A DNA stretch of 64,000 nucleotides. Source: Escherichia coli. Its GTDB lineage: Bacteria > Pseudomonadota > Gammaproteobacteria > Enterobacterales > Enterobacteriaceae. Made by a program: the position numbers and the translations under genes. The stretch is from NCBI RefSeq assembly GCF_001677475.2, contig NZ_CP015229.1. One strand, written 5' to 3'. Under the pieces are notes generated by a model, which had not been told where the DNA came from, ran no database searches, and saw only the letters and a program-made list of their open reading frames with translations. This document shows, piece by piece, positions 7,046 through 36,744 of the stretch (position 1 is the first letter of the stretch; each line of letters begins with the position of its first letter).

Positions 7046-8581
7046 TTAGTGTTTCTTGTCATTCATCACAATATAGTGTGGTGAACGTGCACGCGGGTGC
7101 AGGAAGAAGTGACCTTTTGGTGCGTTCTGACTGTTGATTGGCTCCAGAGTGACGCCGGTATTCGCTTTGCCTTTACGATCATGAACAGCATAGAGAATAA
7201 AGGGCAGGGCAAGTACCACCAGGAAACTAACGACCAGTAATTCAACATACATATCGGTAGAGTCACCCTGGATGTTATCCGGCGGCAGGAAGGAAACAAT
7301 AAACGCCATAATTGAAGTCAGCAGACCGACAATAGCCACGACCAGTTTCACCCCTTTACCACCAGGGATATTAAATGTGCGTTTTAAGTCAGGATGTTTA
7401 AGAACCAACACAATGTAGCCAATAAACAGCATGAAATAAGCACACAGATAAATCACCACCGTCAGCGCCAGTGCGATCAGGAAGGACATGTTGTTACCGC
7501 CACCGGTATTGGTGAGGATGATCAACGCGATAGAAGTAATCACCAGCTGCGAAATGACCAGCGTTACCGGTACGCCATTTTTGTTCATTTTAGCGAATGC
7601 CGCTGGCAGCAGGTTTTTCTGCGCTGTGACATACATCCCGCGAGAAGGACCAACAATCCAGGAGGCGATTTCCGCCAAAACACCCAGCAACAACAGTGCG
7701 GAGATCACGCGAACCGTCCACTCAATTTCCGGTGCCACATGGGACATCAGAACGGTAAAGGTTTGCATTACCCCTGCGGAGAGGTTGATTTCATTACCCG
7801 GAATGACCATCGCAATAGACAAACCGCCAACAGAGCTTAAGCAGATTGCCGCCACCATCAGCAGTAACATAGCCAGTGGATAGTCGCGCCCGGGGTTGCT
7901 CATTTCATTGACGTGAGTTGCGGAAGCTTCTACGCCCATATAACTCAAAATGAAGGCAACAAATACAACCAGGGTGCCCACTTTAGAGAAGTCAGGGAAG
8001 AAGGTCTTCGAATCCATTTCGATAGCAACGGGGGCACCGGAGTGCAGATAAATAGCCGCTAATGCGATCAAAATAAATGCAGGTAACAGGATACCGGCGA
8101 AGAAGCCAACTTTAGCAATTCGTGCCGTGTATTTCGTGCCACCAAACTGCGTTAATGCCAGCGCCCAAAGAATGATGAGTGCTGCAATAGTTTTGGTAAT
8201 GGGGTCTTCATTCAGCGCTGGCCATTTCAGGATGTAGGAGAGTGCCCCTAACACGAAATAGAGCATCGGAATAAAACCAATGGCGATTTGCAGATAGCCA
8301 AATGAGATCGCTGCAAATCCCCATCTCGGCCCCAGAGTATTTGATACCCAGGCGAAGACACCACCTTCTTCCCAGCCGTCGACGGTGGCCATTTCCGCAG
8401 CACAAAGTCCCACGGGAATAAACCATAAAATCCCGCCTAATAGCAGGAAGAAGACTAATGAAAAGCCCGATGTTGCGAAGGTAGGGTATTCATAAACAGC
8501 CATTACCATCGATGCCGTTATGGCAAAAAAGCCGAGTAATGTGAGCTGCTTAGCTTTACCTGTCTGTACTGATGTAGCCAT
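7046..8581 (-). CDS. gadC: Glutamate:GABA antiporter
   Basis: 511-aa polytopic membrane [39 protein letters not shown]... recognised as GadC. Confidence 0.92.
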
Positions 8582-8690
8582 ATTATCCCCCTAAAACGGT
8601 ATTCCTGTCGGAACCGCACCTGTTTTGTTCTGAAGCGTATTCAGAACAATATTTTCCGTTGCTAATGCCAGTGAACAGACTTTGGAGATT

Positions 8691-8716
8691 GTCCCGAAAC
8701 GGGTTCGTTTCGGGAC
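8691..8716 (-). other. 11-bp perfect stem-loop in the gadB-gadC intergenic region
   Basis: gtcccgaaacg-ggtt-cgtttcgggac; no U-tract follows, so more likely a processing or stability element than a terminator. Confidence 0.5.
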
Positions 8717-8736
8717 ACCGTTACCGTTAAACGTTA

Positions 8737-10137
8737 TCAGGTATGTTTAAAGCTGTTCTGCTGGGCAATACCCTGCAGTTTCGGGTGATCGCTGAGATAT
8801 TTCAGGGAGGCTTTGTAGTCTTCCAGCAACAGTTCAGCAAAGTCCATTTCGAAGCCACGACGACACATAATGCGCATCACCACGATGTCAGTGGCTTCAC
8901 CGCCGAGAGTGAAGGCCGGAACCTGCCAGCCGCGCAGACGCAGACGTTCAGAGAGGTCGTAGAGGGTGTATCCCGGATCTTCACCATCTTTCAGTTTGAA
9001 GCAGACCGCCGGGATGCCTTCGTCCGGACGACCGGTACAGATGAACTCATACGGCCCCAGTTTGGCGATCTCATCCGCCAGATAGGTAGCGACCTGATAA
9101 GAGGCGTTCTGTACTTTGGTATAGCCTTCACGACCGAGGCGCAGGAATTCATAGTACTGTGCAATTACCTGACCCGCCGGGCGGGAGAAGTTGATGGCGA
9201 AAGTACCAATCTGACCACCGAGGTAGTCAACGTTGAACACCAGTTCCTGCGGCAGCGCTTCTTCGTCACGCCAGATAACCCAGCCGCAGCCCAGCGGAGC
9301 CAGACCGAATTTATGGCCTGAAGCACTGATCGATTTCACCCGCGGCAGGCGGAAGTCCCAGACGATATCCGGGGCAACGAACGGCGCCAGGAAGCCACCG
9401 CTGGCAGCGTCGATGTGCATGTCGATGTCGATACCGGTGTCGGCCTGGAATTTATCCAGCGCATCGTGCAGCGGTTGCGGGAACTCATAGTTACCGGTGT
9501 AGGTCACGCCGAAAGTCGGCACCACGCCGATGGTGTTTTCGTCGCAGGCTTCAATCATGCGTTTCGGGTCCATAAACAACTGACCGGGGCGCATAGGGAT
9601 CTCACGCAGCTCCACATCCCAGTAGCGGGCGAATTTATGCCAGCAGATTTGTACCGGACCGCACACCAGGTTTGGTTTATCCGTTGGTTTGCCTGCAGCT
9701 TCCATACGCTTGCGCCAACGCCATTTCATCGCCATCCCGCCGAGCATACAGGCCTCGGAAGAACCAATGGTGTTGGTGCCAACGGCCTGACCATTTTTCG
9801 GCGCAGGCGCATGCCACAGATCGGCAACCATATTTACGCAACGCAGGTCAATGGCTGCGGATTGCGGATATTCTTCTTTGTCGATCCAGTTTTTGTTAAT
9901 GGATAAATCCATCAATTTGTGGACATTTTCGTCGTCCCAGGTCTGGCAGAAAGTGGCCAGGTTCTGACGAGCGTTGCCATCAAGATATAATTCGTCATTG
10001 ATAATCTGGAATGCGACATCGTCGCGCATTTCGTGCAGCGGAAAACGTTTTGATTCTGCGATAGTGGAAATAGACTTCGCACCAAAACGTGAATCGAGTA
10101 GTTCCGACCTTAAATCCGTTACTTGCTTCTTATCCAT
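8737..10137 (-). CDS. gadB: Glutamate decarboxylase beta
   Basis: ORF 8737..10206; start trimmed to [24 protein letters not shown]... (466 aa) as in E. coli GadB; gadA is excluded by the gadC neighbour. Confidence 0.92.
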
Positions 10138-10216: not shown

Positions 10217-10236
10217 TTTAAATAACAAAATCCTAA
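10217..10236 (-). promoter_or_regulatory. GAD box (GadE/GadX-type binding site) upstream of gadB
   Basis: Minus strand reads TTAGGATTTTGTTATTTAAA, the 20-bp GAD-box consensus known from gadA/gadBC promoters (recalled from literature). Confidence 0.8.
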
Positions 10237-20622: not shown

Positions 20623-20954
20623 AAATGTTCCTCTTCTTATTGTACTTAATTCCAAAGTAATTTTACGAAGAGAAATAAGTGGATGTAAGTGAAGTTAGTC
20701 ACATAAAGAGATAGCAGATTTAGCTAAAAAAAGGGAAATAACAGTCCATAAAGCGTTGACATTACTTTTTGTTCTACTAAGTAATTTCTCGACGATAAAC
20801 AACTAATCTATTGATATTTAATAAATTATTGTATTTTACTGACAAAATGCCGAATTAAGATCATAAATAATCATGCAACAGGTTATGCAAATGCATAAAT
20901 ATGTGATGAATGTCACTTATTTATTTCAATAAATATATCGCCTAAAAACAACGC

Positions 20955-20975
20955 GGGGCAGGAAATGGCTGCCCC
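20955..20975 (-). terminator. Putative intrinsic terminator downstream of ydeO
   Basis: Hairpin ggggcag-gaaatgg-ctgcccc followed on the transcript by gcgttgttttt. Confidence 0.5.
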
Positions 20976-21023
20976 ATTTAATTCTTACGTAGCGTGTGTG
21001 GTTGACTACTCGTTAGCAAATAA

Positions 21024-21785
21024 TCAAATAGCTAAAGCATTCATCGTGTTGCCCTTATTCATACCCGTGTGCCTTTGACAACGGTACTCCTTAGAAACTC
21101 TCTTTGGACTGTTGCCAAAATGTTTGCGGAACGCATAAATAAAATAAGATGTACTGGCATAACCACATTGTTCGGCAATTTTATTGACTGAACCTTCTAC
21201 GCGTATCAAATTTTTTGCGTGCTGCATTCTGGCATCTAAAAGAATCTGTGAGAATGTCGTTTGCTCTTGCTTAAGTTTTTTCTTCAACAGGCTTTCACTG
21301 ATGTACAGGCAGTCACAAATATCTTTCAGCTTCCATGGGTGCGCCAGCTTCATGTTGACAATATTTCTCACTTTCCCGGAAACGGATAGCACACCGTTAG
21401 TTAATAGTGTAATGAAACCTTTGCATGCGGCAAAAATAGACAGGCAAGAAAAAAGCAAAAGTTCTGAAAAATTATGATGATTGCGTTCTTCCGAGTTGAG
21501 ATAAGCAATCATTTCATTAAGCAATCCAGTCGGTACATTTGAAGCACGTAAAAACTTCGCAGGAACAGGCACCGTCACTGTCTGGATGTTAGTGCATTGT
21601 AGATATTTTTTAATGGTATTTTCATTAAATCCGATTTCTTTAAAATGCCGCTCATAAGGTTCAAAATGCGTACGAACAGCGTTATCTACCATCAAGATCT
21701 CGCCGTCAGAGAAGGCGTAATCTTTATCTAAAATGTTAGCGTTGAAGGCATGATGAATAAATATAACAGAACAAACGAGCGACAT
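21024..21785 (-). CDS. ydeO: AraC-family acid-resistance transcriptional activator
   Basis: 253-aa ORF MSLVCSVIFIHHAFNANILDKDYAFSDG... with C-terminal AraC HTH; recognised as YdeO. Confidence 0.92.
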   Translation of the reverse strand: MSLVCSVIFIHHAFNANILDKDYAFSDGEILMVDNAVRTHFEPYERHFKEIGFNENTIKKYLQCTNIQTVTVPVPAKFLRASNVPTGLLNEMIAYLNSEERNHHNFSELLLFSCLSIFAACKGFITLLTNGVLSVSGKVRNIVNMKLAHPWKLKDICDCLYISESLLKKKLKQEQTTFSQILLDARMQHAKNLIRVEGSVNKIAEQCGYASTSYFIYAFRKHFGNSPKRVSKEYRCQRHTGMNKGNTMNALAI

Positions 21786-21859
21786 TTTATCTCCTTAAAA
21801 CAATAAAGTTTTTATCGATACTTTTTTAACATTTCATATTTATAATTTGCTGTTTATTT

Positions 21860-22057
21860 TCAGTCTTGCAAACTATTGATAATGAAATGTGTAATATCTC
21901 TTGCAATGCGACCCATTTCTGAAATACCCAGCTGATCAATTGCCGAAAAAATGGCTATCAACGTAAGTGTCAGTAATAAGACAACCACAATTACAGACAT
22001 GATTTCTTTATAGTTGTCTCTTTGCGTGATTTTGTTTTTCACTGTGGTCGCATGCAT
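21860..22057 (-). CDS. safA: Small membrane connector protein linking EvgS/EvgA to PhoQ/PhoP
   Basis: 65-aa ORF with a single transmembrane segment (IMSVIVVVLLLTLTLIAIFSAI); position between ydeO and ydeP as for safA. Confidence 0.85.
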   Translation of the reverse strand: MHATTVKNKITQRDNYKEIMSVIVVVLLLTLTLIAIFSAIDQLGISEMGRIARDITHFIINSLQD

Positions 22058-22168
22058 TTCAAATATGTTTATTTAGCGGATAACGTTAAAAATCGTTAAT
22101 CAGTATGCTTAATATAACAGGCTGGAGAAAAGAGGAAATAGGACTGGTGCTTCAGTACTGAGCGGAGT

Positions 22169-22186
22169 TTCTTACAGCTGTAGGCA
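22169..22186. promoter_or_regulatory. EvgA box upstream of safA-ydeO
   Basis: TTCTTACA-GC-TGTAGGCA, matching the inverted-repeat EvgA consensus TTCYTACA-N2-TGTARGAA (recalled), about 110 bp upstream of safA. Confidence 0.7.
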
Positions 22187-22304
22187 GAAGTTTATATCTT
22201 ATAGTATGTAGTTTAATTTAATCCATGTGAGCAAATTGCGCGATAATAGTCAATGAGGAATTCTTCTGCTGTGCGGATGACAGCAGAAGAAATGAGAAGA
22301 GGCA

Positions 22305-24584
22305 TTAATTTGATGGTTCTAATTCAACCGGAATACTTTTATAGCCAGGAATGCCACTTAATGGATCGTGGTTATCAAGTGTTAGCATGTGATTCGATTC
22401 TGGAAAATAGGTCACCAGTGAGCGGTCAGCCATAGGGTAAATGACCACTTTTAATCTATCCATGCGGCGTGAGCTGCGCTTACCGTCTGGCGTAAGCGCA
22501 ATAAGATTAACTCTTTCGCCGTTTTTTACACGGCAAATTTTAGCTTGTTTAGCACTCATAAAGACCACATCTCGTTGACCGAATACCCCTCGATAGCGAT
22601 CATCCATACCATAAATCGTCGTGTTGTACTGATCGTGGCTGCGTACTGTCGCCATGACCAGCTTACTATTAAACGCTGAAGAGGGATCTTCTAACAGCCC
22701 TTTGCTGGTAATGAAATTAGCCTTACCTGACGGCGTCATCCAGCGCCTTTCAGCAGCTGCATTTATCAGGTGAAAACCACCGGGATGACGGATGCGCTGG
22801 TTATAGTCGGCGAACTCTGGCAGCACAGCTTCAATGTCATTGCGAATGCGATCATAATCTTCCACCAGATACTCCCAGGCTACCACGCTCTGAGGTAGTG
22901 CTGCCTGCGCGATTCCCGCGACCACTGCACACTCTGATTTCAGCATTACACCGGCGGGTTTTAACACGCCACGCGAGGCATGAATCATCGACATTGAATC
23001 CTCAACGGTTACCGCCTGCGCACCGCTTTTTTGCATATCAATCTCGCTACGTCCCAGAACCGGCAGAATATAGCTATGCCGTGCGGTCAGCAGATGAGAG
23101 CGGTTAAGCTTAGTGGCTACGTGTACCGTCAGATCTAATTGCGTTAACGGTACAGCGCTCGCTTCCCGATCTGGCATTGCAAGTGCAAAGTTGCCCCCCA
23201 TGCAGATCAATGCTCGAGCTTGCCCCGTACATATAGCTTGCATGCTGGCAATTGCAGCATGTCCAGGTGCATGAGGTGGGGTGAAGCCATAGCGCTCACC
23301 AAGGCGAGCCAGAAACTCTGCAGACGGTTTCTCGGTGATACCGACGGTTCGGTCGCCCTGTACATTAGAGTGACCTCGTAGTGGGCAGATACCCGCACCA
23401 GGCTTGCCAATGTTACCTTTCATCAACAGCAGATTGACCAGTTGCTGTACATTCTGGGTACCATGTTCGTGCTGAGTGATCCCCATTCCGTAACAGATAA
23501 TGGTGCGTTCGGCAGCGACATATGCATCAGCCAGTTCGGCGATTTGAGTCTGACTTAATCCAGAAATACGTTCGATATCTTTCCACTCGGAATTGAGAAC
23601 GTCACGGCGTAGCTCGTCAAAGCCGACGGTATGCGTTTGAATAAATTCGTCATCCAGCAATGAGGGCCGACCTGCGGCGCTTGCAGCATCATCGCGCTCA
23701 ATTAACAGGCGCATCATCCCCTTGAGCAACGCCATATCGCCACCAATGCGCACGTTATAGTAGGCACTAGCCAACTGAGTCTCAGAGTTCGTCAGCATTT
23801 CAAACGGGTTTTGCGGTGCGGTAAATCGCTCCAGGCCACGTTCCTGTAGAGGATTGATGGCGATCATTTTCGCTCCCCGTTTCACTAAAGCGCGCAACGA
23901 AGTCAACATGCGAGGGTGGTTTGTACCAGGGTTATGCCCAATGCAAATGACTAAATCGCACTTCTCAAAGTCTTCCAGCAACACGGTCCCTTTACCCACA
24001 CCGATACTCGCTGCCAAACCCACACTGGTCGGTTCATGGCACATGTTGGAGCAGTCGGGAAAGTTATTGCTCCCGTATTCACGGGCAAAAAGCTGATAAA
24101 GAAAGGCAGCTTCATTGGAAGTGCGCCCCGAAGTATAGAATTCAACCTGATTGGGATCACTATAGCTTTGAAGGCGAGCGCCAATTTCGTCGAAAGCTTG
24201 TTGCCAGCTTAATGGCTTGTAACAGTCGCTGACGGCATCATATTTCAAAGGCTGAGTGAGACGCCCGGCAGCCTCAAGCTCGTGGTCTCCCCAGGTAAGT
24301 AATGATTGAACCGTATTCTCAGCAAAGAAAGAGGCGTTTACCTGCTTATCCGTGACTTCCCAGGCGATTGCTTTTGCGCCGTTTTCACAAATGTCGAATG
24401 ACGCACTGTGCTTAGGATCTGGCCATGCACAACCCGGACAGTCAAAGCCCTCTGGCTTATTCATGTCAAACATGGCAATAACATCCTGGCGTATATCCAT
24501 CTGCTTACGTACTGCATTCGCTACGGATTTAACAGCACCCCAACCACCGGCAGCTCCCTGGTAGGATTCAATTTTTTTCTTCAT
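22305..24584 (-). CDS. ydeP: Molybdopterin-type oxidoreductase, acid-resistance protein
   Basis: 759-aa ORF recognised as YdeP (formate-dehydrogenase-like family). Confidence 0.9.
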
Positions 24585-24824
24585 CTGCTTATCCTGTGTG
24601 GAAATGAATTATTAGGATTTGTAATAGCGATGATGCACAGTATATACAAAGGGATTATCGTCAACATGGATATAAGAGTAGGGGACTACTCTCTTTCTAT
24701 TTTAATCTATTATCGTTAAACAAAAGATTAAATACGATAAATTAAGCATCATCTCTCGTAGTGTTTAAATTAACATATTTTTCAATATAAAAAATAAGAC
24801 TCTGGCGTTAATTGTGCGCGGATT

Positions 24825-24842
24825 TTCTTACAGGTGTAGGAT
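24825..24842. promoter_or_regulatory. EvgA box upstream of ydeP
   Basis: TTCTTACA-GG-TGTAGGAT; same inverted-repeat pattern as the safA box, about 240 bp upstream of ydeP. Confidence 0.7.
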
Positions 24843-24914
24843 AATAGCCTTCACAAAATAATTATCCGCGCAATTTTCGCGAATGGAGCGCATAGACTAA
24901 GGTCAAAATCACAA

Positions 24915-26949: not shown

Positions 26950-29601
26950 TTAGCGACAGATTGCTGTCTGCTGGTTCAGTAAGGTACCAGGAGAAACTTC
27001 AGGAAGCTTGTACTCGACAATACAGTTTGAGTTTTTATCTTTGCCCCATGAAACCTGTAATTTCCCTGACTGTGGAAGTCCAGTCAGATAAACCTGACCG
27101 TTTTCCGCGACAATGCTGCCATTTTTATTCTCTCCATGTGTGACAATTGCACCGAATGGAACGCTCTTATTACCGTACTTCAACGTCATTAATACTTTCC
27201 CGCCGATTTGTGCATTAAATGTTGCTCTGGCAATAGCACCGTGAGTTGGGATGACAGTGACCACGGTTTCATCCAGTTCAACATTATCTGCAAGGGAATT
27301 CGCGTTAAGAGCGACACGATTTTCTCTATATTCTGTCGCAAATGGTAATATGGCATAGCCACGCCAGTCGGTATGAATTCCGGTCTGGTTCTCTATTTTG
27401 ACATTATCAGCGCCAGGAGCCTTAACCAGAACCATTGTGTCGCCCAGCGGCTGACCAAAGGTGATGCCATCAGCATGAGCAATAATCCCACCACTCATTC
27501 CGTAATAAATCTGGCTGCTGTCCCCACTCCGACTGTAACCGACATTAGTATTACCGTAAGCTCCACGATAATTAAGAGAACTGTAACCACTGGTGGCAGA
27601 CGATGTATTACCTCCGTGGGTGTTACCTACCTGAACGCTATAATTCAGGTTATTATCCGGCAGCAGAGTGCCATAAACCCCCGATAGATTGGTCATGCCG
27701 CCTTTCAAATCGTTTGACATACTGTAACTGGCGTTTGAATTACGAAATGCCGACTGACTGTCTGTACGCATCCAATGACTGAAGGGAACATTAAGCGTAA
27801 AAGCAAGTAAATGATCCCGATCGTTTTGCCATATATTATTGGAATAGCTGTAATTCAGCGAAGTCGTAATATCACCAAACGGCACATTTAATCCAAATGA
27901 TATTTGCTGGTCGCTGCGTGACGTGTTCCAGTAACTTTGGCGACTGGCACTGAAAAATGTCGTACCGTAATTTCCAAGCTGCTGAGAGATGCTTATTTGT
28001 TCCTGACCACGCTTACTGTAGAACAGATTAAAATAATCAATAAATTGTGTCTGCTCATTGCTGTCTCCGGTAGGAGGCTTGACGGTGTAACCACTCATTC
28101 GACTGTAGGCACTGTCGGATAAGTTATAAAAACCTTGCGTAGAATAGCGATATCCTGCGACCTGGATATTGGTTCCCGTCTGGTAGAAGGATTTGCTGTA
28201 GACGGATTTAATCGATTGCCCGCTGTGACGGGTGCCATCTGCAAGTGTCGTATTGGCCTGCGTGATATCGAAAGAAAAGGCACCAAAAAGTCCTAAATCT
28301 TTACCAATACCAAGGTTGAAGGCCTGATAATCTTCTGCAATTTGCATTCCGCCATAAGGTGTCCAGTTTCCTTCCAGTCCATGCATCAAGCTACCTTGTA
28401 TGAACTTGGGGGAGCTTTGCAGGTTATTTCCACTACGATATTCCCCCATGGCAAGCGCATAACGCGTATATCCAGCACGTTGGAGAACCGGAACAGACGA
28501 ATAAGGAACATATAATGTCTGAATACTGCCGTCTGCCTCTTTTATGGTTACTTGCAGATCACCACCATTGGCCGCAGAGTTGATATCATCAATAGTAAAA
28601 GGGCCGGGTGGAACAGTAGTCTGATAAACATCGTATCCGTTCTGTTTTACACTCACTTGTGCGGTGCCACGGGCAATACCATGAATCACCGGAGCGAAAC
28701 CATGTTGGCTATCGGGCAACATCGCTTCTGTTGAATTTATTTTGAGGCCACGAAAGTTCACACTATCAAAAATATCGCCATCGGTATAACTATCACCTAC
28801 CGTTAACCGTGAGCGTAAGGGAATAATGTCACGTTCAGCCGACGTATTGATATGCTGCCATTTATTGCTGTCAGATGAATTGCTACTCCCACTGTTATAA
28901 CTCCACGTTGAGTTATCGCGCAGTCGCCAACTACCAATGTTGATGCCACTCTGTAAATTCAAATATGCATAGTTGGATTTTCCTGCATTATGGTTACTAC
29001 GATTATTAATAGAATTACCATTAAAACTATAGTTTAGAAGCCCAGCATTTATTCCTTCTTCCCACAGATCAGGAGAAACATAGCCGCTAGCCATTCTGCC
29101 AACATAAATTTGCGGAACGGAGAGTGACAGATGTTGCTGACCAACATCAAACTCAGTTGATGCGTCGGCCAAACGATCCTGAAGTGGTGTGCATGCGCTG
29201 TTGTCCGGCACATGTTTTTCTGCCGAATGTTCCTTATTGCCTAATAATGCAGATTTTTTTATGCCAAGACTGACAAGAAGATCTGTACTCAGGCATGGGA
29301 TGAGATCTGCGTTATTATCATCTGCAATAAAAGTAATATCCCGACTAGTCATAAATTCGTCGTTCAAATAAATGTCGACCCGATATGTACCAGGTGGTGC
29401 CTCGCGTCCCTTAGTAAAGGCGGATAAATCGACAGATTCAGCAAGATCATTGCTTAAAAACCGTGGATTAAAATAATACTCTGCGTCAACGGGAAAAACC
29501 GCAGTTGCTAAGCCAAGGGCAATGGTAAGCCGTGCAAAGCGAGGCAGTAGTAACACCTGATGCATACGATATGCCTTAAATGCGGCACGAAAGGCTGTCA
29601 T
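26950..29601 (-). CDS. ydeT: Fimbrial outer-membrane usher, full length
   Basis: 883-aa ORF at usher size and position; in K-12 ydeT is only a fragment (recalled), whereas here it is intact. Start codon choice (MTAF vs MHQV) not resolved. Confidence 0.85.
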   Translation of the reverse strand: MTAFRAAFKAYRMHQVLLLPRFARLTIALGLATAVFPVDAEYYFNPRFLSNDLAESVDLSAFTKGREAPPGTYRVDIYLNDEFMTSRDITFIADDNNADLIPCLSTDLLVSLGIKKSALLGNKEHSAEKHVPDNSACTPLQDRLADASTEFDVGQQHLSLSVPQIYVGRMASGYVSPDLWEEGINAGLLNYSFNGNSINNRSNHNAGKSNYAYLNLQSGINIGSWRLRDNSTWSYNSGSSNSSDSNKWQHINTSAERDIIPLRSRLTVGDSYTDGDIFDSVNFRGLKINSTEAMLPDSQHGFAPVIHGIARGTAQVSVKQNGYDVYQTTVPPGPFTIDDINSAANGGDLQVTIKEADGSIQTLYVPYSSVPVLQRAGYTRYALAMGEYRSGNNLQSSPKFIQGSLMHGLEGNWTPYGGMQIAEDYQAFNLGIGKDLGLFGAFSFDITQANTTLADGTRHSGQSIKSVYSKSFYQTGTNIQVAGYRYSTQGFYNLSDSAYSRMSGYTVKPPTGDSNEQTQFIDYFNLFYSKRGQEQISISQQLGNYGTTFFSASRQSYWNTSRSDQQISFGLNVPFGDITTSLNYSYSNNIWQNDRDHLLAFTLNVPFSHWMRTDSQSAFRNSNASYSMSNDLKGGMTNLSGVYGTLLPDNNLNYSVQVGNTHGGNTSSATSGYSSLNYRGAYGNTNVGYSRSGDSSQIYYGMSGGIIAHADGITFGQPLGDTMVLVKAPGADNVKIENQTGIHTDWRGYAILPFATEYRENRVALNANSLADNVELDETVVTVIPTHGAIARATFNAQIGGKVLMTLKYGNKSVPFGAIVTHGENKNGSIVAENGQVYLTGLPQSGKLQVSWGKDKNSNCIVEYKLPEVSPGTLLNQQTAICR

Positions 29602-29642
29602 TATTAATTCCGATTGAGTTTATTATTAATTAGGTCACTGGC

Positions 29643-30362
29643 TTACTGCATGGTTGCCTTAATACGCGGAGTTAATGCACCGTAATCATTGATCGTCTGA
29701 AAACTGATGTCCCCGGTTGCAGCATGCGGGATATCCACCGATACTTCACCTTTTGGCGGCACCATGGTGTTTGGGAGATTGCTATTTCCTGCTTTCATAT
29801 TTGTTACGGTAATGAAGTAGGGCGTTGGATTAATAAGAGTGAGTTTGCTACCGCTGCGACGAAACCGAAGCATTGCAGGCGCTTCTTCAGGTGCCATTGC
29901 CAGGTTCGTGGGGCGATAAAACATTTTTATGCGGCTAATAATTGCCAGCTGTAATGTATTCTCATTCTTCTGGTCTTTTTCCATAGCAGGAATAGCTTTA
30001 ACATTAACCCAGAACAGGCTTTCACGGTCGCCTGGTAACTGATGATTAGTGGCGTTGATTATCCGCAGCGTATTCTCTTTTTTACCTTGCATGGAAAAAA
30101 GCGGTGGGGTAATGACAAACTGGGTGTCTTTTTGGTCACCTGCATTTTCTATCCATGACTGAATGAGATAGACACTGGCAGGATCATTATTCGTGACAGG
30201 CAATAAAACCTGTTTCTGGTTTGCCGGATAAATTACCCGCGTCGCACCCAGTGCGACAGCTGCGTTGGCAACGGTGCTATGGCAAGCAAAGAGCAATAAA
30301 AGTAACACTGTCGCCATAAAGGAAATAGAGTAGGGGGTACGCGTAGTTTGCATCTGATGCAT
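29643..30362 (-). CDS. Periplasmic fimbrial chaperone (PapD/FimC family)
   Basis: 239-aa ORF with signal peptide, immediately upstream of the usher. Confidence 0.85.
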   Translation of the reverse strand: MHQMQTTRTPYSISFMATVLLLLLFACHSTVANAAVALGATRVIYPANQKQVLLPVTNNDPASVYLIQSWIENAGDQKDTQFVITPPLFSMQGKKENTLRIINATNHQLPGDRESLFWVNVKAIPAMEKDQKNENTLQLAIISRIKMFYRPTNLAMAPEEAPAMLRFRRSGSKLTLINPTPYFITVTNMKAGNSNLPNTMVPPKGEVSVDIPHAATGDISFQTINDYGALTPRIKATMQ

Positions 30363-30714
30363 TCTCCATGTGTTAAGAGGATAAGCGGGGAAACCGTTAC
30401 ATCAGACAATCGGTAAATGTTGCTAATACATTGGCGACTCGCTGGGTTTCCATACTTAATGCGTTTGTAATAAATGTTGGTTCTCTTTTAATAGGAAAAC
30501 CTTGCTACAAAGTAAATTTTTTAAATAACAGTAAATTTAACTACTGTTGTTTATTGATCGTTTAGATATTATGTGATTTTTCATAGTGCTCCCAAATAAA
30601 AACCATTTCTCATTAAAAATGAGATGAACATTGGTGAGTTGCTCGGGTGTGCGTAGCCATGCCACACACACCCTGTTTCAATTTCAGATGACGTATAGCC
30701 ACCTTAAGATTGAA

Positions 30715-31278
30715 TTATAGATATTGAACTTTGAAGGTCGCATCTGCGTTTGCAGTACCAGCTACTGACTGCCCGAGAGCAATATAACGAGCCTGGAATG
30801 GCAGTATATTCGTGCCATCAATCAAGTCAGTTTTAGCGCTAAAAGTGGTACCATCAAGTATTAATACCTCCCCCGTACGGTCCAAAATTTGAATACCAAC
30901 ATTTTGGGCAGAGCCTGCCGCTGAACTCTGCAGCGCTAACGTGTCGTCATTACTGGTGACAGTAGTACCCAGGAATGCAACAGCTGCATTACTGGAAACA
31001 TTGGTATCACAATCATTCAGCTTGATATTGAAGCCAACGGCGGAGCTGAGGTCACCCGCTTTAGCCAGACGAGAAGAACGGACCTGACCCAGCTCAACCG
31101 TTTGGTTCATTGATTCTGAATCAATCGCACAAGCGGCATTTACCACTTCACCTTTAAAATGAATAACACCGCCATTAACAGTGGTCGTTACTGATTCATC
31201 ACCCTCGGCTGCGCTTACCGCAGCAGACGACATCGCCAACACAGAAACGACAATCATACCGACATGTTTGAGTTTCAT
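30715..31278 (-). CDS. Major fimbrial subunit (FimA-like)
   Basis: ORF 30715..31326 trimmed to [23 protein letters not shown]... (187 aa), preceded by GGAG; first gene of the operon. Confidence 0.8.
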
Positions 31279-31711
31279 AATTCTCCAAAATCTATATTTA
31301 AGTAGCTGAATAAAGAGAGTTAACAATTAAGTCATTCTGTTATTGCTTATAAAACAAGAATCATTCTTGATTGGTTGTTGCCCTGAGAATATAGTTTCCA
31401 GGGTTATTACATTTCACGAAGAACGATAATATCTTTAAATCACAAGGACACCTAATCACAACAAGTTTATTGCTGCACTTGTTGGAGAGAGTATTTGCAA
31501 AAACATTTTATGGCGCTAAATAACATGACGATTTCATTATGCATGTTATTTATAAACCGTGACTAAACAGAATATTATTGCGGACAAGGGAAGTGTCAGG
31601 AAAGGTCAAGAGATACTAATGGTTTATATGGCTATAAATCATTAGTTATGGTTAATGTTTGCCTGGTGTAACTAACACGGAATTGCTCTAAACAGATAAG
31701 TGCAGGGTTTA

Positions 31712-32062: not shown

Positions 32063-32141
32063 GAAAGAGGAGAGGCTTTATGTTCTTGAACCCTGAAGTA
32101 ATAACGACGACCGGAAAATCGCTTCGCATCACTCAAACTCA

Positions 32142-32169
32142 ATTTAACATAATATACATTATGCGCACT
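32142..32169. other. dif-like site, left junction (attL): host-like XerD arm, phage-like XerC arm
   Basis: ATTTAACATAA-TATACA-TTATGCGCACT; 27 of 28 identical to the reverse complement of E. coli dif (GGTGCGCATAATGTATATTATGTTAAAT, recalled); the single mismatch is the outermost base of the XerC arm. Confidence 0.85.
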
Positions 32170-32181
32170 AAGGTGCGCATA
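32160..32181 (+). repeat. 9-bp perfect inverted repeat of the XerC-binding arm
   Basis: TATGCGCAC-TAAG-GTGCGCATA; the left half is the XerC arm of attL, the right half an inverted copy; overlaps a 10-bp palindrome CGCATATGCG (32176..32185). Confidence 0.8.
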
Positions 32182-32202
32182 TGCGTATTCTGGAGGTGTG
32201 TC

Positions 32203-33066
32203 ATGGCTTGTACTCGTCCTTTGAACGCGTACCAAATGCCATCGGGGAAGATTTTTTTCACGCCGTCACGTGGCGCTAAATTCATTCAGTTGCCCTGTGG
32301 TCAGTGCATCGGTTGCCGTCTTGCTCATTCTCGTGACTGGGCGACCCGCTGCGTTCATGAAGCCCACATGCACGATCACAATTGTTTTATCACTCTGACT
32401 TATTCGCCTGAGAATTTACCTGAAGGCGGTACTCTCGTTCGTAAACATTTCACCGATTTTATGAAGCGTTTGCGTAAGGAATTAGATAAGGATGATGTGA
32501 AAATTCGTTATTTTGGCTGTGGTGAATATGGCTCTAAATTAGAGCGACCGCATTATCATGCGATTATTTTTGGTTATGATTTTCCGGATAAGACACTTTA
32601 TAAAGCGGGAAGATTTAATTTATTTAATTCCCCGCTTCTTTCGAGATGTTGGAATCTTGGTTGGGCTGTTATTGCTGGTTTTAGTTTTGAGTCGGCTGCT
32701 TATGTGGCGCGATACTGTGTTAAAAAAATCAACGGTTTCCGTGCAGATGAGCATTATGGACATCGCCTACCCGAGTTTTCGGCTATGAGTAATCGCCCAG
32801 GTATTGGGTATGATTTTTTTATGACCTATTACGAGGATATTGTTAATGCAGATGCGTGTATTGGTCGTGGCGGTCGTCAGATAAAACCGCCCCGCTATTA
32901 TGACAAGTTATTATCAGGCTGTGATTTGGAAAAGTTGCAGCAGAATAAAGAAAAGCGCCAGTTAAATGCCCGTGTATTAGACCCGTGGCGTTTGCAGGAT
33001 TTGGATAAGTTTAATCTGGTTAAATTCCAGCGAATGATGAGGAAATTAGAAGATGGCTCACTCTGA
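32203..33066 (+). CDS. Replication initiation protein (VP4, rolling-circle HUH endonuclease)
   Basis: Track ORF 32080..33066 trimmed to MACTRPLNAYQ… (287 aa) with GGAGG 6 nt upstream. Rolling-circle motifs: FITLTY, HYHAIIF (HUH), AAYVARYCVKK (catalytic Tyr pair), plus CGQCIGC. Confidence 0.9.
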   Translation: MACTRPLNAYQMPSGKIFFTPSRGAKFIQLPCGQCIGCRLAHSRDWATRCVHEAHMHDHNCFITLTYSPENLPEGGTLVRKHFTDFMKRLRKELDKDDVKIRYFGCGEYGSKLERPHYHAIIFGYDFPDKTLYKAGRFNLFNSPLLSRCWNLGWAVIAGFSFESAAYVARYCVKKINGFRADEHYGHRLPEFSAMSNRPGIGYDFFMTYYEDIVNADACIGRGGRQIKPPRYYDKLLSGCDLEKLQQNKEKRQLNARVLDPWRLQDLDKFNLVKFQRMMRKLEDGSL

Positions 33067-33322
33067 TGCAGTTTATGTAATTCATGACAAGCTGATTGCG
33101 GCTGATGTTTTTATGTTTATGGCCCAGCATGATGGTATTGCGAAAGGCAATTTGCACGCGTTCTGTAACCGTATGCAGCGCACTGACTTTGTGCTGTACC
33201 GTGTGACGGCTTATGACTTTGAAGACCAGCAGCTCGTCCCCGTGGACATTGACCGCGTTTATATTTGCACCGCTTTCCCTGCCATGCTGGAGAATGCCCA
33301 AGATGAAATCCTTGAAGCGTAA
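33053..33322 (+). CDS. Small phage protein, VP5-like
   Basis: 89-aa ORF overlapping the VP4 3' end and the VP3 start; assigned by size and position in the gokushovirus gene order, not by motif. Confidence 0.6.
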   Translation: MAHSDAVYVIHDKLIAADVFMFMAQHDGIAKGNLHAFCNRMQRTDFVLYRVTAYDFEDQQLVPVDIDRVYICTAFPAMLENAQDEILEA

Positions 33323-33815
33323 GTTCCATACCCGCTATGACCCGCCGCCGTCGCCCGGCATCGAGTTCAAAGAACCCACGATGACCCAGCAGCATTTCCG
33401 CGATGAGTGCGACATCAACAAGATTGTTGAGCGTGCGATAAGAACGGGAGATACGACAGTCTTTACCAGTGCTCAACGTGCTGATTTCTACGATGCATCT
33501 TCGATTACTGACTACGTGGACGCAATGGCTTTAATTGACGACGTTAACGACGACTTTAACAGCCTGCCGTCCACGATTCGCTCGATGTTTGGTAATAACG
33601 TTAAGCAGTACGTTGAGTGGATGAGTAATCCCGCGAACTGGAATAAAGCCCGTGAGCTTGGATTGTTGAGCGGCGGAGAGGAGTCGGCGACCGAACGCGC
33701 CAGCGTTCGCGAGTCGAGTCCTGCTCCGGCGTCCCCGCGGGAGCGTGAGCGGACTTCGGAGAGTTCCCCGAAGGGGGAGTCGGAGAAGTCTGCGAATAAT
33801 GATGCAGGCTCATGA
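33303..33815 (+). CDS. Internal scaffolding protein, VP3-like
   Basis: ORF 33213..33815; likely start MKSLKRKFHTRYDPPPSPGIEF… (33303, or 33294); acidic Ser/Glu-rich C-terminus. Assigned by position and size. Confidence 0.6.
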   Translation: MKSLKRKFHTRYDPPPSPGIEFKEPTMTQQHFRDECDINKIVERAIRTGDTTVFTSAQRADFYDASSITDYVDAMALIDDVNDDFNSLPSTIRSMFGNNVKQYVEWMSNPANWNKARELGLLSGGEESATERASVRESSPAPASPRERERTSESSPKGESEKSANNDAGS

Positions 33816-33855
33816 GCTGCATGAAAAAAACCTGAAGACGGCTCCGGCCCTTCAG

Positions 33856-33892
33856 CCTGGCACAGTGGCCCTCTTGATGTAACTGTGCCAGG
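33856..33892 (+). repeat. 11-bp perfect stem-loop in the VP3-VP1 intergenic region
   Basis: cctggcacagt-(15 nt)-actgtgccagg. Confidence 0.8.
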
Positions 33893-33904
33893 TGACACCG
33901 AAAC

Positions 33905-33932
33905 TTACAGGCGGCTCCCACGAAGCCTGTAA
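33905..33932 (+). repeat. 8-bp stem-loop in the VP3-VP1 intergenic region
   Basis: ttacaggc-(12 nt)-gcctgtaa. Confidence 0.75.
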
Positions 33933-33992
33933 AAAGGTGTCAGTTTATACAGTAGTTTGTGTAGTATTTAAACAATTCCCTGAGGGGGGTTT

Positions 33993-35705
33993 ATGAGTAA
34001 ATTCGGTCGTAAAGTACCTAGTAATGCAAAAAGTCAGCATAATTTTTCAGTAATCCCGAGTGCCAATATTCAGCGTTCGGTCTTTAACCGCAGCTCTGGT
34101 TATAAAACCACTTTTGACGCTGGTTATTTGATTCCCGTGTTTCTGGATGAGGCTTTGCCGGGTGATACATTCCACCTGAAAACGTCCATACTGGCGCGTT
34201 TATCCACGCCAGTGGTGCCGTTTATGGATAACCTGCGACTGGACATCCAGTATTTTTCCGTGCCCTACCGTCTGGTCTGGGATAACTGGCAGAAATTCAA
34301 CGGTGAACAGAAGAATCCTGGCGATTCGACGGATTACCTTATTCCGCAGATTAAAGCCCCTGCTGGCGGCTTCCCTGTAGGCTCCCTTGCCGATTATTTT
34401 GGTGTTCCCACAGGTGTGGAGAATATCAGTGTAAGCGCCCTGCCGTTCCGCGCTTATAACCTGATTTATAACGAGTGGTATCGTGATGAAAACCTGATTA
34501 ATTCCGCCCCGCTTCCGCTTGGCGATGAGGAAGAAACAGGCCTCGCCAATTTCCCGCTGCGTAAGCGTGCCAAGCGTCACGATTACTTCACAAGTGCTCT
34601 GCCGTGGCCTCAGAAGGGTGAAGGCGTTGAGATTGGTTTAGGCGTTCCGCCGTCGTATACGCTCGATTTCCCGACCTATCCTGATGGTCTGCCGTTTGTT
34701 TCTTATGGCGTTGGTGTCGATGGAGATATGACTTCGCACAATCCGACTTATCTTGCCCGTAATAATGTTAACGAAGGCTCATCATACGAGGCCTATGGTA
34801 ATGCGGTTTATATGAGTGACGGCAGGAATCCCAGCAATCCGCTGGAATGGCCTCCTATGTCGCCCTCCACTGGACGTATTGATGTTATTGGTGGTTTTAG
34901 CAGAAACCAGCCTCCGGTTACGTTAAATAAGCAAGGTGGTGAAGTTGTCGATAATCTGACAATTAACTCGCTGCGTCAGGCGTTCCAGCTTCAGCGGCTG
35001 CTTGAGCGCGATGCTCGCGGTGGTACTCGCTATATTGAGATTATCCGCTCCCACTTTGGCGTTATTTCGCCTGATGCCCGTGTACAGCGTCCCGAGTATC
35101 TCGGCTCTGGTTCATTCGACATAAATATTAATCCTGTTCTTCAAAACTCCGCGACGACCGACGCAAGTCCGCAAGGCAACCTCGCGGCCTATGGTGTCTC
35201 CGGTGGTGTTAACCGTGGATTTTCTCATTCTTTTGTGGAGCACTGTTTTGTTATTGGCCTTGTTAGCGTTCGTGCTGACCTGACCTACCAGCAAGGCATC
35301 CCGCGCATGTTCTCCCGCCAGACCCGCTTTGATTTCTACTGGCCTGCACTGGCTCACCTGGGCGAACAGGCTATCCTTAACAAGGAGATTTACGCGCAAG
35401 GCAACGACAAGGATGATGAAGTATTTGGCTACCAGGAACGTTACGCGGAGTACCGCTACCGACCGTCTCAGATTACTGGTAAATTGCGTTCTACCGACCC
35501 GCAATCCCTCGATGTGTGGCATTTAGCCCAGCGGTTCGACTCTCTGCCCGCACTGAATCAGGAGTTTATCGAGGAGAATCCACCGATGAAGCGCGTCCTC
35601 GCCGTACAGGACGAGCCTCAGTTCATCATGGATGCGTTCTTCGACCTGAAGTGTGTGCGGCCTATGCCTGTTTACTCAGTACCAGGTCTTATCGATCATT
35701 TCTAA
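33993..35705 (+). CDS. Major capsid protein (VP1, Microviridae F-protein family)
   Basis: 570-aa ORF MSKFGRKVPSNAKSQHNFSVIPSANIQRSVFNRSSGYKTTFDAGYLIPVFLDEALPGDTF…, closely resembling the conserved N-terminal block of gokushovirus VP1 (recalled Chlamydia-phage pattern …IQRS.F.RS.G.KTTFDAGYLIP…PGDTF…); RBS GAGGGGGG. Confidence 0.9.
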   Translation: MSKFGRKVPSNAKSQHNFSVIPSANIQRSVFNRSSGYKTTFDAGYLIPVFLDEALPGDTFHLKTSILARLSTPVVPFMDNLRLDIQYFSVPYRLVWDNWQKFNGEQKNPGDSTDYLIPQIKAPAGGFPVGSLADYFGVPTGVENISVSALPFRAYNLIYNEWYRDENLINSAPLPLGDEEETGLANFPLRKRAKRHDYFTSALPWPQKGEGVEIGLGVPPSYTLDFPTYPDGLPFVSYGVGVDGDMTSHNPTYLARNNVNEGSSYEAYGNAVYMSDGRNPSNPLEWPPMSPSTGRIDVIGGFSRNQPPVTLNKQGGEVVDNLTINSLRQAFQLQRLLERDARGGTRYIEIIRSHFGVISPDARVQRPEYLGSGSFDININPVLQNSATTDASPQGNLAAYGVSGGVNRGFSHSFVEHCFVIGLVSVRADLTYQQGIPRMFSRQTRFDFYWPALAHLGEQAILNKEIYAQGNDKDDEVFGYQERYAEYRYRPSQITGKLRSTDPQSLDVWHLAQRFDSLPALNQEFIEENPPMKRVLAVQDEPQFIMDAFFDLKCVRPMPVYSVPGLIDHF

Positions 35706-35722
35706 GTTACATTGTCACTTTT

Positions 35723-35745
35723 GGCCTCTGCGGAGGCCTTTTTTT
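35723..35745 (+). terminator. Intrinsic terminator/attenuator after the capsid gene
   Basis: ggcctc-tgcg-gaggcc followed by TTTTTTT. Confidence 0.7.
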
Positions 35746-35759
35746 CATGAGGTGAAATT

Positions 35760-36542
35760 ATGGGCTTTTTATCATCTGCCATTGGTGCCGCTGGTTCTAT
35801 TGCCGGCTCCCTGCTTGGTGCGAACTCTGCGAAGGATTCAGCTAACCGTGCCAATAAGTTAACGATGGATTTGGCCAAAAACGGCATCCAGTACCGTGTG
35901 CAGGATTTACGGAAAGCTGGCCTTAACCCCATTCTGGCCGTTACTGGTTCCGGTGGTCTTGGTTCCGTCAGTTCGTCAGGTATTCAGGCCGCCCAGCCTG
36001 CCGATTTTTCTGGTGTGGTTAATTCTGCGGTCAGCGTATTTGACGCATTAACGAAGCGTCAGCAGCAGGAAGTCGCTAAGGAAGGCATCATGTCCCAGAT
36101 TGCGTTACAACGTAACCAGATTGCGAATAGCGCGGCTGATGTGAAGCTCAAAGAGGCTCAGGCTGCGCAAGCCTTATCTTCCATTTCTACTGGTAATGCC
36201 CAGACTAATTTGATTAATCAGCAGGCTTTGACCGAGGCTTCCCGCCGTGCCAATATTGAAGCACAGACGGGCCTTAGTTCTGCGCAGCGGATTAGAACAC
36301 AGTATCAAACTGTACAGGACAAGGTTTTGGCTGATTATTTGAATACACCGATTGGAGCTGAAAGTGCACGTGTCAATATGGATGCTTCTCGCGGTGGTAT
36401 CGTTGGCGGCGTTAATACTTTTCTGCGTTCTTTGCAACGTGATTACCCGTCTAACTCGAACTCTGCGAAGAAAGTAAACAAGGGGGGAACCTTCCCCCCT
36501 TCACAGTTCCAACAGCAATTGATTAATAACTATCGGAGGTAA
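35760..36542 (+). CDS. Minor capsid / DNA pilot protein (VP2-like)
   Basis: 260-aa ORF with Gly/Ala/Ser-rich N-terminus (MGFLSSAIGAAGSIAGSLLGANSA…) and Gln/Ala-rich predicted coiled region; RBS GAGGTG; position after VP1. Confidence 0.7.
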   Translation: MGFLSSAIGAAGSIAGSLLGANSAKDSANRANKLTMDLAKNGIQYRVQDLRKAGLNPILAVTGSGGLGSVSSSGIQAAQPADFSGVVNSAVSVFDALTKRQQQEVAKEGIMSQIALQRNQIANSAADVKLKEAQAAQALSSISTGNAQTNLINQQALTEASRRANIEAQTGLSSAQRIRTQYQTVQDKVLADYLNTPIGAESARVNMDASRGGIVGGVNTFLRSLQRDYPSNSNSAKKVNKGGTFPPSQFQQQLINNYRR

Positions 36543-36543
36543 T

Positions 36544-36663
36544 ATGGCTCGTTCTCGCCGTCGTATGTCCAAGCGTTCTTCCCGTCGTTCGTTCCGTAAG
36601 TACGCAAAGACGCATAAACGTAACTTTAAAGCCCGCTCTATGCGTGGTGGAATTCGTCTTTGA
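36544..36663 (+). CDS. Small basic DNA-binding protein (VP8 / J-like), absent from the ORF track
   Basis: ATG at 36544, stop TGA 36661..36663; translation MARSRRRMSKRSSRRSFRKYAKTHKRNFKARSMRGGIRL (39 aa, roughly 40% Arg/Lys). Confidence 0.7.
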   Translation: MARSRRRMSKRSSRRSFRKYAKTHKRNFKARSMRGGIRL

Positions 36664-36693
36664 TTGACAAAGTTGATCGTAACGATCTATGAT
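36664..36693 (+). promoter_or_regulatory. Putative sigma70 promoter at the prophage right end
   Basis: TTGACA (36664..36669), 18-bp spacer, TATGAT (36688..36693); the spacer contains GATCGTAACGATC with two GATC sites. Pattern match only. Confidence 0.35.
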
Positions 36694-36716
36694 AATTATC
36701 GTAAGTCGTTGTTTTT

Positions 36717-36744
36717 GTTAAACTAAATATACATTATGCGCACC
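36717..36744. other. dif-like site, right junction (attR): phage-like degenerate XerD arm, host-like XerC arm
   Basis: GTTAAACTAAA-TATACA-TTATGCGCACC; XerD arm 7 of 11, central region 6 of 6, XerC arm 11 of 11 versus dif. Confidence 0.8.

Follow-up and report, generated by a model that had tools for sequence, protein, structure and literature searches.

The closest described counterpart of the locus analysed here is the orthologous region of Escherichia coli K-12 with the EvgA boxes of ydeP and safA (b1500)-ydeO. Direct regulation by EvgA has been reported for ydeP (PMC8174306) and direct EvgA binding for the safA-ydeO promoter (PMC9496106), while P_safA was found to be responsive to EvgS/EvgA (bioRxiv 10.64898/2026.05.06.723403). 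All directly regulated genes are described as having an EvgA binding site (PMC4283999), and the inverted repeats at yfdX and yfdWUVE are bound by EvgA (PMC3720670). Reviews credit the footprint- and reporter-type experiments on K-12 EvgA to Itou et al. 2009 (cited in PMC8174306 and PMC9496106). EvgAS has its nearest homologue in BvgAS (PMC8174306). The sites of BvgA, a NarL/FixJ-family regulator acting at Bordetella virulence promoters, are inverted heptad-like repeats of related sequence upstream of sigma-70 promoters. These repeats are of the TTTCCTA type. However, they belong to another genus and another regulon and carry several cooperative dimers reaching the -35 region, whereas the present promoters each show only a single clear palindrome, and the boxes described below are not claimed as members of the BvgA sites. 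The primary papers defining the EvgA box are reportedly those of Masuda and Church 2003 and of Itou, Eguchi and Utsumi 2009; the exact published box consensus and the transcription-start positions were not found in our literature search, which missed these primary papers.

The window, i.e. the whole stretch of 64,000 nucleotides that was analysed, contains full-length orthologues of YdeP, SafA and YdeO in the gene order and on the strand known from K-12 (Table 1). The three proteins are 95-99% identical to those of K-12, the NCBIfam scores of YdeO and YdeP are above cut-off, and the collinearity with K-12 across 25 kb amounts to 98.3%. RefSeq carries these genes as ydeO, safA and ydeP in over 5,300 E. 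coli genomes. With a probability of roughly 0.95 we regard the locus as the ydeP/safA-ydeO branch of the acid-resistance regulon under EvgS/EvgA, in an E. coli-type genome other than K-12 and with one box per unit. Position 21024 is the final base of the ydeO stop codon, behind which an intrinsic-terminator-like hairpin follows. The hairpin behind ydeP, whose loop is altered and whose stem is unchanged in the divergent relative L006, is probably a ydeP terminator or an RNA-stabilising hairpin that parts ydeP from the safA-ydeO unit.

Table 1. Features of the acid-resistance genes, their putative control elements and the terminus in the window
Feature	Position	Strand	Details
gadBC operon	7046..10137	-	gadB 8737-10137; gadC 7046-8581
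GAD box	10217..10236	-	TTAGGATTTTGTTATTTAAA; exact 20/20 match, 0.03 expected; 80 nt upstream of gadB ATG (10137)
Intrinsic-terminator-like hairpin with T run	20954..20976	-	3' of ydeO
ydeO	21024..21785	-	AraC/XylS-family activator of gadE; 253 aa; NCBIfam NF007407 equivalog, 604 bits; 249/253 identical to K-12
safA	21860..22057	-	Membrane connector, PhoQ activator; 65 aa; 61/64 identical to K-12 SafA; RefSeq annotation of matching loci
Putative EvgA box, safA-ydeO promoter	22169..22186	-	+ strand TTCTTACAGCTGTAGGCA; gene orientation TGCCTACAGCTGTAAGAA
Hairpin with 12-bp perfect stem	22261..22291	-	Directly 3' of ydeP stop codon; RNA fold -17.6 kcal/mol, z -4.7
ydeP	22305..24584	-	Acid-resistance putative molybdopterin oxidoreductase, FdhF/YdeP family; 759 aa; NCBIfam NF007406 equivalog, 1832 bits; 756/759 identical to K-12
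Best sigma-70-like ydeP promoter, predicted	24784..24811	-	-35 TTAACG, 16-nt spacer, -10 TATATT; starts 13 bp downstream of box
Putative EvgA box, ydeP promoter	24825..24842	-	+ strand TTCTTACAGGTGTAGGAT; gene orientation ATCCTACACCTGTAAGAA
dif site	32142-32169		27/28 match; 7.3 kb from ydeP box

The preliminary description had placed two matching inverted repeats upstream of safA-ydeO and ydeP, and direct reading found both at exactly these coordinates. They count as upstream because ydeP, safA and ydeO are all encoded on the minus strand. The boxes lie in the non-coding ydeP-safA and ydeQ-ydeP intergenic regions, each upstream of its transcription unit and in register with a downstream signature shared by four other regulon promoters (see below), 112-129 nt before the safA ATG (22057) and 241-258 nt before the ydeP ATG (24584), respectively. 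Each box has a single mismatch to the complete 18-bp palindrome TTCYTACANNTGTARGAA and, likewise, to the EvgA-box consensus TTCYTACA-NN-TGTARGAA, an 18-bp imperfect inverted repeat. The palindrome is imperfect overall, with arms CTTACA and CCTACA around a perfect core TACA-NN-TGTA; read in gene orientation, the promoter-proximal half-site matches TGTAAGAA perfectly, and the distal one departs from it at its two outer bases. The consensus used for the search is the one we presume for the EvgA box, and it is corroborated only by its presence at other regulon promoters.

Palindromes of this kind might also arise as chance matches in AT-rich intergenic DNA without a regulatory role, and at 2-3 mismatches 8 and 16 of 100 shuffles indeed gave 1-2 matches. 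However, the 14-base pattern TTCTTACANNTGTAGG common to both boxes has two exact matches in the 64 kb window, counted over both strands, against 0.01 expected, two or more matches appeared in none of 100 dinucleotide-preserving shuffles, and both boxes precede genes of one regulon. No third site for the shared pattern was found in the window when 2-3 mismatches were tolerated.

The same motif occurs at other EvgA targets. In K-12 it was found upstream of emrK/evgA, frc and yfdX, the latter with two copies, which makes four matches in 19 kb against 0.28 expected, and also upstream of yegR. A position weight matrix (PWM) was trained only on these five sites from other parts of the regulon (emrK/evgA, frc, two at yfdX, yegR), with the boxes of the window excluded. 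When it was scanned over the approximately 64,000 positions of the window, the ydeP box ranked first with 22.3 bits and the safA box second with 21.0 bits, more than 10 bits over the next site (10.6 bits), and both scores exceeded those of all 200 shuffles. The cores of the boxes are, moreover, constant across lineages with diverged flanks. Given the exact-match statistics, the PWM ranking and the core conservation, the explanation by chance was rejected and is hardly credible. The boxes of emrK/evgA, frc, yfdX and yegR share the 18-bp TTCYTACA-NN-TGTARGAA design and a position 100-250 bp before the start codon, but they differ in the downstream genes, in the perfect palindrome at frc and in the two tandem boxes at yfdX, compared with one box each at ydeP and safA. 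The gene gadE is also reported to be activated by EvgA; a search of the region around K-12 gadE at up to 3 mismatches gave a single match, inside mdtE and at chance level, and none near gadE.

The safA box is identical to that of K-12 at 18/18 positions and the ydeP box at 17/18. The single difference concerns the outer base of the distal ydeP half-site, T in this genome versus G in K-12, such that the ydeP box has one mismatch to the palindromic consensus here and two in K-12. The ydeP leader differs from K-12 by few further substitutions and small indels. In eight Escherichia sequences the core of the safA box is unchanged, and the cores of the boxes stay the same among divergent strains of E. 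coli and in a divergent lineage of Escherichia, whereas the flanks directly upstream of them vary. The box-centred 60-mers were found in 5,370 and 5,322 of 5,426 complete E. coli genomes. Strain JML285 is a natural mutant in which the ydeP box is split by an element of the IS21 family. The box sites are under purifying selection. A scan of genome contigs with YdeP gave few Escherichia relatives, namely a divergent "E. coli", a contaminated MAG and a short contig; neither E. albertii nor E. fergusonii was among its matches. In Edwardsiella, no box accompanies ydeP (84% protein identity), and no match to safA or ydeO was seen alongside. Similarly, the distant YdeP homologues from Edwardsiella, Yersinia, Burkholderiaceae and others showed no box at up to two mismatches. 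The genes evgAS are located outside the window, about 0.9 Mb away in K-12. Since evgA is near-universal in E. coli (5,398 of the 5,426 complete genomes), evgAS is presumed to be present in this genome as well.

Downstream of the boxes, a simple promoter scan returned one sigma-70-like site for ydeP (Table 1) and none for safA; a candidate extended -10 of safA, TGTTATATT (a TGnTATATT element at 22119-22111), was read by eye. The predicted distance from box to -10 is 35 bp for ydeP versus 52 bp for the TGnTATATT element of safA, and because the box-relative register differs between these two predictions no transcription start is assigned. In-register conservation suggests TATTTT at 24796-24791 as an alternative -10 of ydeP, and depending on the choice of -10 we infer that the box centre would lie at about -49.5 or about -56.5 from the transcription start.

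The six promoters of ydeP and safA from this genome and of emrK, frc, yfdX and yegR from K-12 share an in-register module after the box, with CA at +9/+10, G at +19 and TCnTATT at +26 to +32 (sum-of-pairs z = 8.8), and in the divergent Escherichia lineage this module is kept as strictly as the box. In addition, the half-sites are unequal at the Y position in five sites, with the C-type distal and the T-type proximal to the promoter in 5/5 cases. EvgA-dependent promoters may consist of more than the 18-bp box, namely of the box together with a rigid downstream module, although we consider this reading unlikely. The module and the order of the half-sites could reflect EvgA acting from one fixed position in one fixed orientation. 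They could also reflect a second, half-site-like contact placed 42 bp, exactly four helical turns, downstream of the distal half-site. The module may equally be merely a shared core promoter. The architecture of box plus module is not spelled out in the literature searched and may already be shown in Itou et al. 2009. The extended signature with its fixed register could guide promoter dissection.

The likeness of the ydeP and safA promoters might alternatively result from local duplication of one segment, i.e. from common descent instead of independent selection for two EvgA sites. The likeness does continue downstream of the box with 25/42 ungapped identities, and at least 27 identities occur in only 0.04% of the ungapped 42-mer pairings between both intergenic regions, pairings which overlap the box-anchored register. 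Yet the unlinked promoters of emrK, frc, yfdX and yegR bear the same in-register downstream signature; thus, functional constraint explains the likeness without duplication, which we consider unlikely. Both sites could be functional EvgA boxes under common descent as well, and the two explanations are not mutually exclusive.

A further possibility is that another NarL/FixJ/LuxR-family protein of the acid network, for example RcsB alone or as heterodimer or GadE, occupies the boxes predominantly or alongside EvgA, which would make the EvgA dependence partly indirect. The block TAAGAAA(A/C)TCCGC, which directly follows the box in both promoters and is kept in the divergent lineage, extends the conservation past the 18 bp, and several members of the family recognise related half-sites. 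This block loosely resembles the TAAGAAT...TCCTA type, which we take to be that of the RcsB box. Nevertheless, we consider the involvement of such a protein very unlikely, as the GAD box in the window has a quite different sequence, the motif specifically accompanies EvgA-induced operons beside evgAS itself, and direct EvgA binding has been reported (PMC8174306, PMC9496106).

Nothing in the evidence gathered contradicts the explanation by EvgA. The direct activation by EvgA put forward in the preliminary description appears well supported by the motif at the other targets, the independent PWM, the box identity with K-12 and the K-12 literature. EvgA binding and EvgA-dependent induction at the present boxes are taken from the K-12 literature and would apply by analogy. 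Under mildly acidic pH, EvgS would phosphorylate EvgA, a NarL/FixJ-family response regulator, and an EvgA dimer on each palindrome would recruit sigma-70 RNA polymerase to otherwise near-silent promoters. YdeP would then provide a glutamate-independent acid-resistance function, while the AraC-family protein YdeO would activate gadE, and GadE would act at the gadBC GAD box, which also lies in the window. SafA would activate PhoQ/PhoP and thereby link the two two-component systems. This circuit, from EvgA to ydeP and from EvgA via safA-ydeO to GadE/gadBC and PhoQ, had been correctly recognised from sequence alone. The boxes are already characterised EvgA sites at ydeP and safA-ydeO and the finding is textbook biology, hence not a discovery; it is an independent computational validation of the motif, with little weight as a discovery, and indicates an intact and nearly constant EvgA wiring in this non-K-12 lineage and in about 5,300 E. 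coli genomes.

Finally, gadBC with its GAD box had been grouped with this locus as a second acid-fitness region near the terminus. The sequence used for the match, TTAGGATTTTGTTATTTAAA, is presumably the GAD box consensus, and an exact copy of this 20-bp box is indeed present upstream of gadB, as in a GadE-dependent gadBC promoter. Like the EvgA boxes, the GAD box of gadA and gadBC is part of the acid-resistance cascade and a site for a LuxR-family activator, but it is another 20-bp sequence for another regulator, acting downstream of YdeO and GadE and not directly under EvgA. The grouping as a single region calls for a caveat, since approximately 11 kb with the genes pqqL, yddB, yddA, ydeM and ydeN, without acid-related annotation in K-12, separate gadBC from ydeO. 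The expression "second acid-fitness region" is a descriptive label, and no evidence from this analysis unites the entire stretch into a single island. The position near the terminus was borne out, because the dif site in the window places the region literally at the replication terminus. A gokushovirus prophage integrated at dif (32142-36744) was the most notable by-product.

The two imperfect palindromes that the preliminary description had assigned to EvgA were read back exactly at the positions listed in the table. Their interpretation as EvgA sites is supported by the occurrence of the motif at other promoters of the K-12 regulon, by the ranking of a position weight matrix, by conservation and by the K-12 literature. 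EvgA boxes at ydeP and safA-ydeO are an already known feature; in K-12, ydeP is regulated directly by EvgA (PMC8174306), and the safA-ydeO promoter is bound by it (PMC9496106). The pattern common to both boxes, TTCTTACANNTGTAGG with 14 specified bases, was matched twice in total when both strands of the 64-kb window were searched, at an expectation of 0.01, and at least two matches occurred in none of 100 dinucleotide-preserving shuffles. No extra sites were found in the window with 2 or 3 mismatches allowed. Each box is one mismatch away from the 18-bp palindrome TTCYTACANNTGTARGAA, with a perfect TACA-NN-TGTA core. Read in the direction of the genes, both boxes have a perfect TGTAAGAA as their promoter-proximal half, and the promoter-distal half (TGCCTACA or ATCCTACA) departs from the palindrome at its outer bases.

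The motif was tested independently by searching the 18-bp consensus around evgAS of K-12 as well as near yegR and gadE. The 19 kb surrounding evgAS contain four matches compared with 0.28 expected, namely one in the emrK-evgA intergenic region, one perfect palindrome 5' of frc and two sites 5' of yfdX. A further site is situated 107 nt upstream of yegR, and no convincing EvgA box was detected in the vicinity of gadE. A position weight matrix built from these five K-12 sites only, leaving out the window boxes, ranked the latter first and second among all positions (22.3 and 21.0 bits; third 10.6); over 200 shuffles, the top-scoring position reached at most 20.3 bits and the runner-up at most 17.1. 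A chance origin of both boxes is excluded, since it is contradicted by the shuffle counts and by this independent ranking. Occupation of the boxes by another NarL/LuxR-family protein represents a minor alternative, which is compatible with EvgA binding.

Features of the ydeO-ydeP locus and of the dif region (window coordinates)
Feature	Position	Strand	Remarks
ydeO	21024-21785	minus	253 aa; NCBIfam equivalog, 604 bits, far above cut-off; 249/253 identical to K-12
safA	21860-22057	minus	65 aa; without NCBIfam model; 61/64 identical to K-12 SafA
ydeP	22305-24584	minus	759 aa; NCBIfam equivalog, 1832 bits, far above cut-off; 756/759 identical to K-12
Terminator	20976-20954		predicted hairpin 3' of ydeO
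Perfect 12-bp stem-loop	22261-22291		directly 3' of ydeP stop; -17.6 kcal/mol, z -4.7
Terminator-like hairpin	24884-24864		3' of ydeQ
safA-ydeO EvgA box	22169-22186		+ strand reads TTCTTACAGCTGTAGGCA
ydeP EvgA box	24825-24842		+ strand reads TTCTTACAGGTGTAGGAT
Gokushovirus prophage	32142-36744		4.5 kb
dif, prophage flank	32142-32169		27/28 match
Second dif-like site, other prophage flank	36717-36744		24/28 match; every mismatch in XerD arm
Replication initiator, prophage ORF	32080-33066
Scaffold protein, prophage ORF	33213-33815		Chlamy_scaf
Major capsid, prophage ORF	33993-35705		Phage_F
Pilot-like protein, prophage ORF	35760-36542

The three genes ydeO, safA and ydeP are co-oriented. The safA box is located in the ydeP-safA spacer, 112-129 nt before the safA ATG, and the ydeP box in the ydeQ-ydeP spacer, 241-258 nt before the ydeP ATG. 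Judged from the sequence, the three hairpins would delimit ydeP and safA-ydeO as two separate transcription units with one box each. The stem-loop behind ydeP, which has no more than a weak T tract on its 3' side and, in the divergent Escherichia lineage L006, an unchanged stem and an altered loop, is likely the ydeP terminator or an mRNA-stabilising hairpin. No terminator-like site was seen at the safA/ydeO junction, in agreement with the published safA-ydeO operon (PMC9496106; bioRxiv 10.64898/2026.05.06.723403).

Six promoters were aligned on the box, those of ydeP and safA from the window (24784-24824 and 22128-22168) and those of emrK, frc, yfdX and yegR from K-12. The 42 nt 3' of the box are conserved in register, with a sum-of-pairs identity of 269/630 compared with 175 ± 10.6 in shuffles (z 8.8). 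All six promoters share CA at +9/+10, TC at +26/+27 and T+31, and five of them A+12, A+13, G+19, A+30 and T+32, which can be summarised as CA at +9/+10 and TCnTATT at +26 to +32. The block CAG(A)GTCyTATTT is unchanged even in L006. Five boxes have halves that differ at the pyrimidine of TTCYTACA, and in each of them the C-type half is gene-distal and the T-type half gene-proximal. The simplest reading of the downstream signature is a core promoter at fixed spacing from the box, a second contact by EvgA being less likely; the signature may already have been described by Itou et al. (2009). The best predicted sigma-70-like promoter for ydeP (TTAACG, 16-nt spacer, TATATT; 24811-24784) starts 13 bp 3' of the box and would place the box centre near -56.5, whereas the in-register conservation favours TATTTT (24796-24791) as -10, which would put it near -49.5. 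The ydeP and safA downstream segments share 25 of 42 positions; a duplication origin of the two box regions is considered a minor explanation that does not exclude the others. In addition, the ydeP box is enclosed by a perfect inverted repeat of 9 nt, TGCGCGGAT / ATCCGCGCA, with arms at 24815-24823 and 24864-24872, 40 nt apart, the upstream arm being also part of the hairpin behind ydeQ. The repeat is conserved in K-12, and in L006 it is retained with a single substitution that would still permit a G-U pair, the arms being 12 bases further apart.

The window is collinear with 1,565-1,590 kb of K-12 MG1655 at 98.3% identity. The 3.9-kb locus (21024-24900) is nearly universal in E. coli: among 5,426 complete genomes of the species, 5,392 match it, with annotation as ydeP, safA and ydeO, 5,398 carry evgA, and 5,370 and 5,322 contain the 60-base segments centred on the boxes. 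Over its full length, the locus reaches no more than 98.6% identity to any complete E. coli genome in RefSeq, hence this collection contains no close representative of the window's lineage. The safA box is the same in K-12, whereas the ydeP box departs in a single position, the outer distal base, where K-12 has G and the window T; this brings the window strain nearer to the consensus. The E. coli variants with the greatest divergence among those retrieved, and likewise L006 with its 95% identical YdeP, keep the box cores unchanged except for the NN spacer, outer bases and one substitution, an A-to-G change in the ydeP box of L006 that makes it similar to the emrK box; directly 5' of the boxes, the sequence varies freely. 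The 84-85% identical YdeP of Edwardsiella is encoded in a different gene context, with no box at up to 3 mismatches and no safA or ydeO match seen beside ydeP, which suggests that ydeP alone has been transferred horizontally. The other fetched YdeP homologues had no box at up to 2 mismatches. Such box-free homologues fit the reported restriction of EvgAS and SafA to E. coli and Shigella (PMC8174306, PMC9496106). An E. coli-type ydeP with 100% amino acid identity and both EvgA boxes on contig JARKOR010000108.1, binned as 'Candidatus Nanosynbacter', is almost certainly bin contamination. In E. coli JML285 (NZ_AP024114.1, ~2,463,600), an IS21-like element of the IS100kyp family splits the ydeP EvgA box after ...CCTACACCTGT; this insertion parts the distal half-site from the promoter and would represent a natural box-disruption mutant.

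The window supplies the cis elements for a circuit whose steps are taken from the K-12 literature. Mild acidity would be sensed by EvgS, which would phosphorylate the NarL-family regulator EvgA; YdeO would then activate gadE, GadE would drive gadA and gadBC, and SafA would activate PhoQ (for the steps from YdeO, GadE and SafA see PMC4283999; PMC9496106; bioRxiv 10.64898/2026.05.06.723403). The preliminary description had added gadBC with its GAD box as part of an acid-fitness region near the terminus. An exact GAD box is indeed present 80 nt upstream of gadB, and the dif site lies 7.3 kb from the ydeP box; treating the whole 7-25 kb as one region is only descriptive, because pqqL, yddB, yddA, ydeM and ydeN are situated in between.

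At dif, the chromosome dimer-resolution site, a gokushovirus (Microviridae) prophage is integrated. It is bounded by two dif-like sites, whereas K-12 has a single dif without insert. Xer-integrated gokushoviruses of enterobacteria are an already described kind of element, and Escherichia phage EC6098 shows 92% nucleotide identity to the prophage. Moreover, the fimbrial usher gene ydeT (region 26950-31457) is intact in the window with 883 aa, in contrast to the shortened K-12 fragment adjoining the yneL pseudogene; approximately 3.3 kb (28176-31457) with two further ORFs of 239 and 203 aa are missing from K-12.
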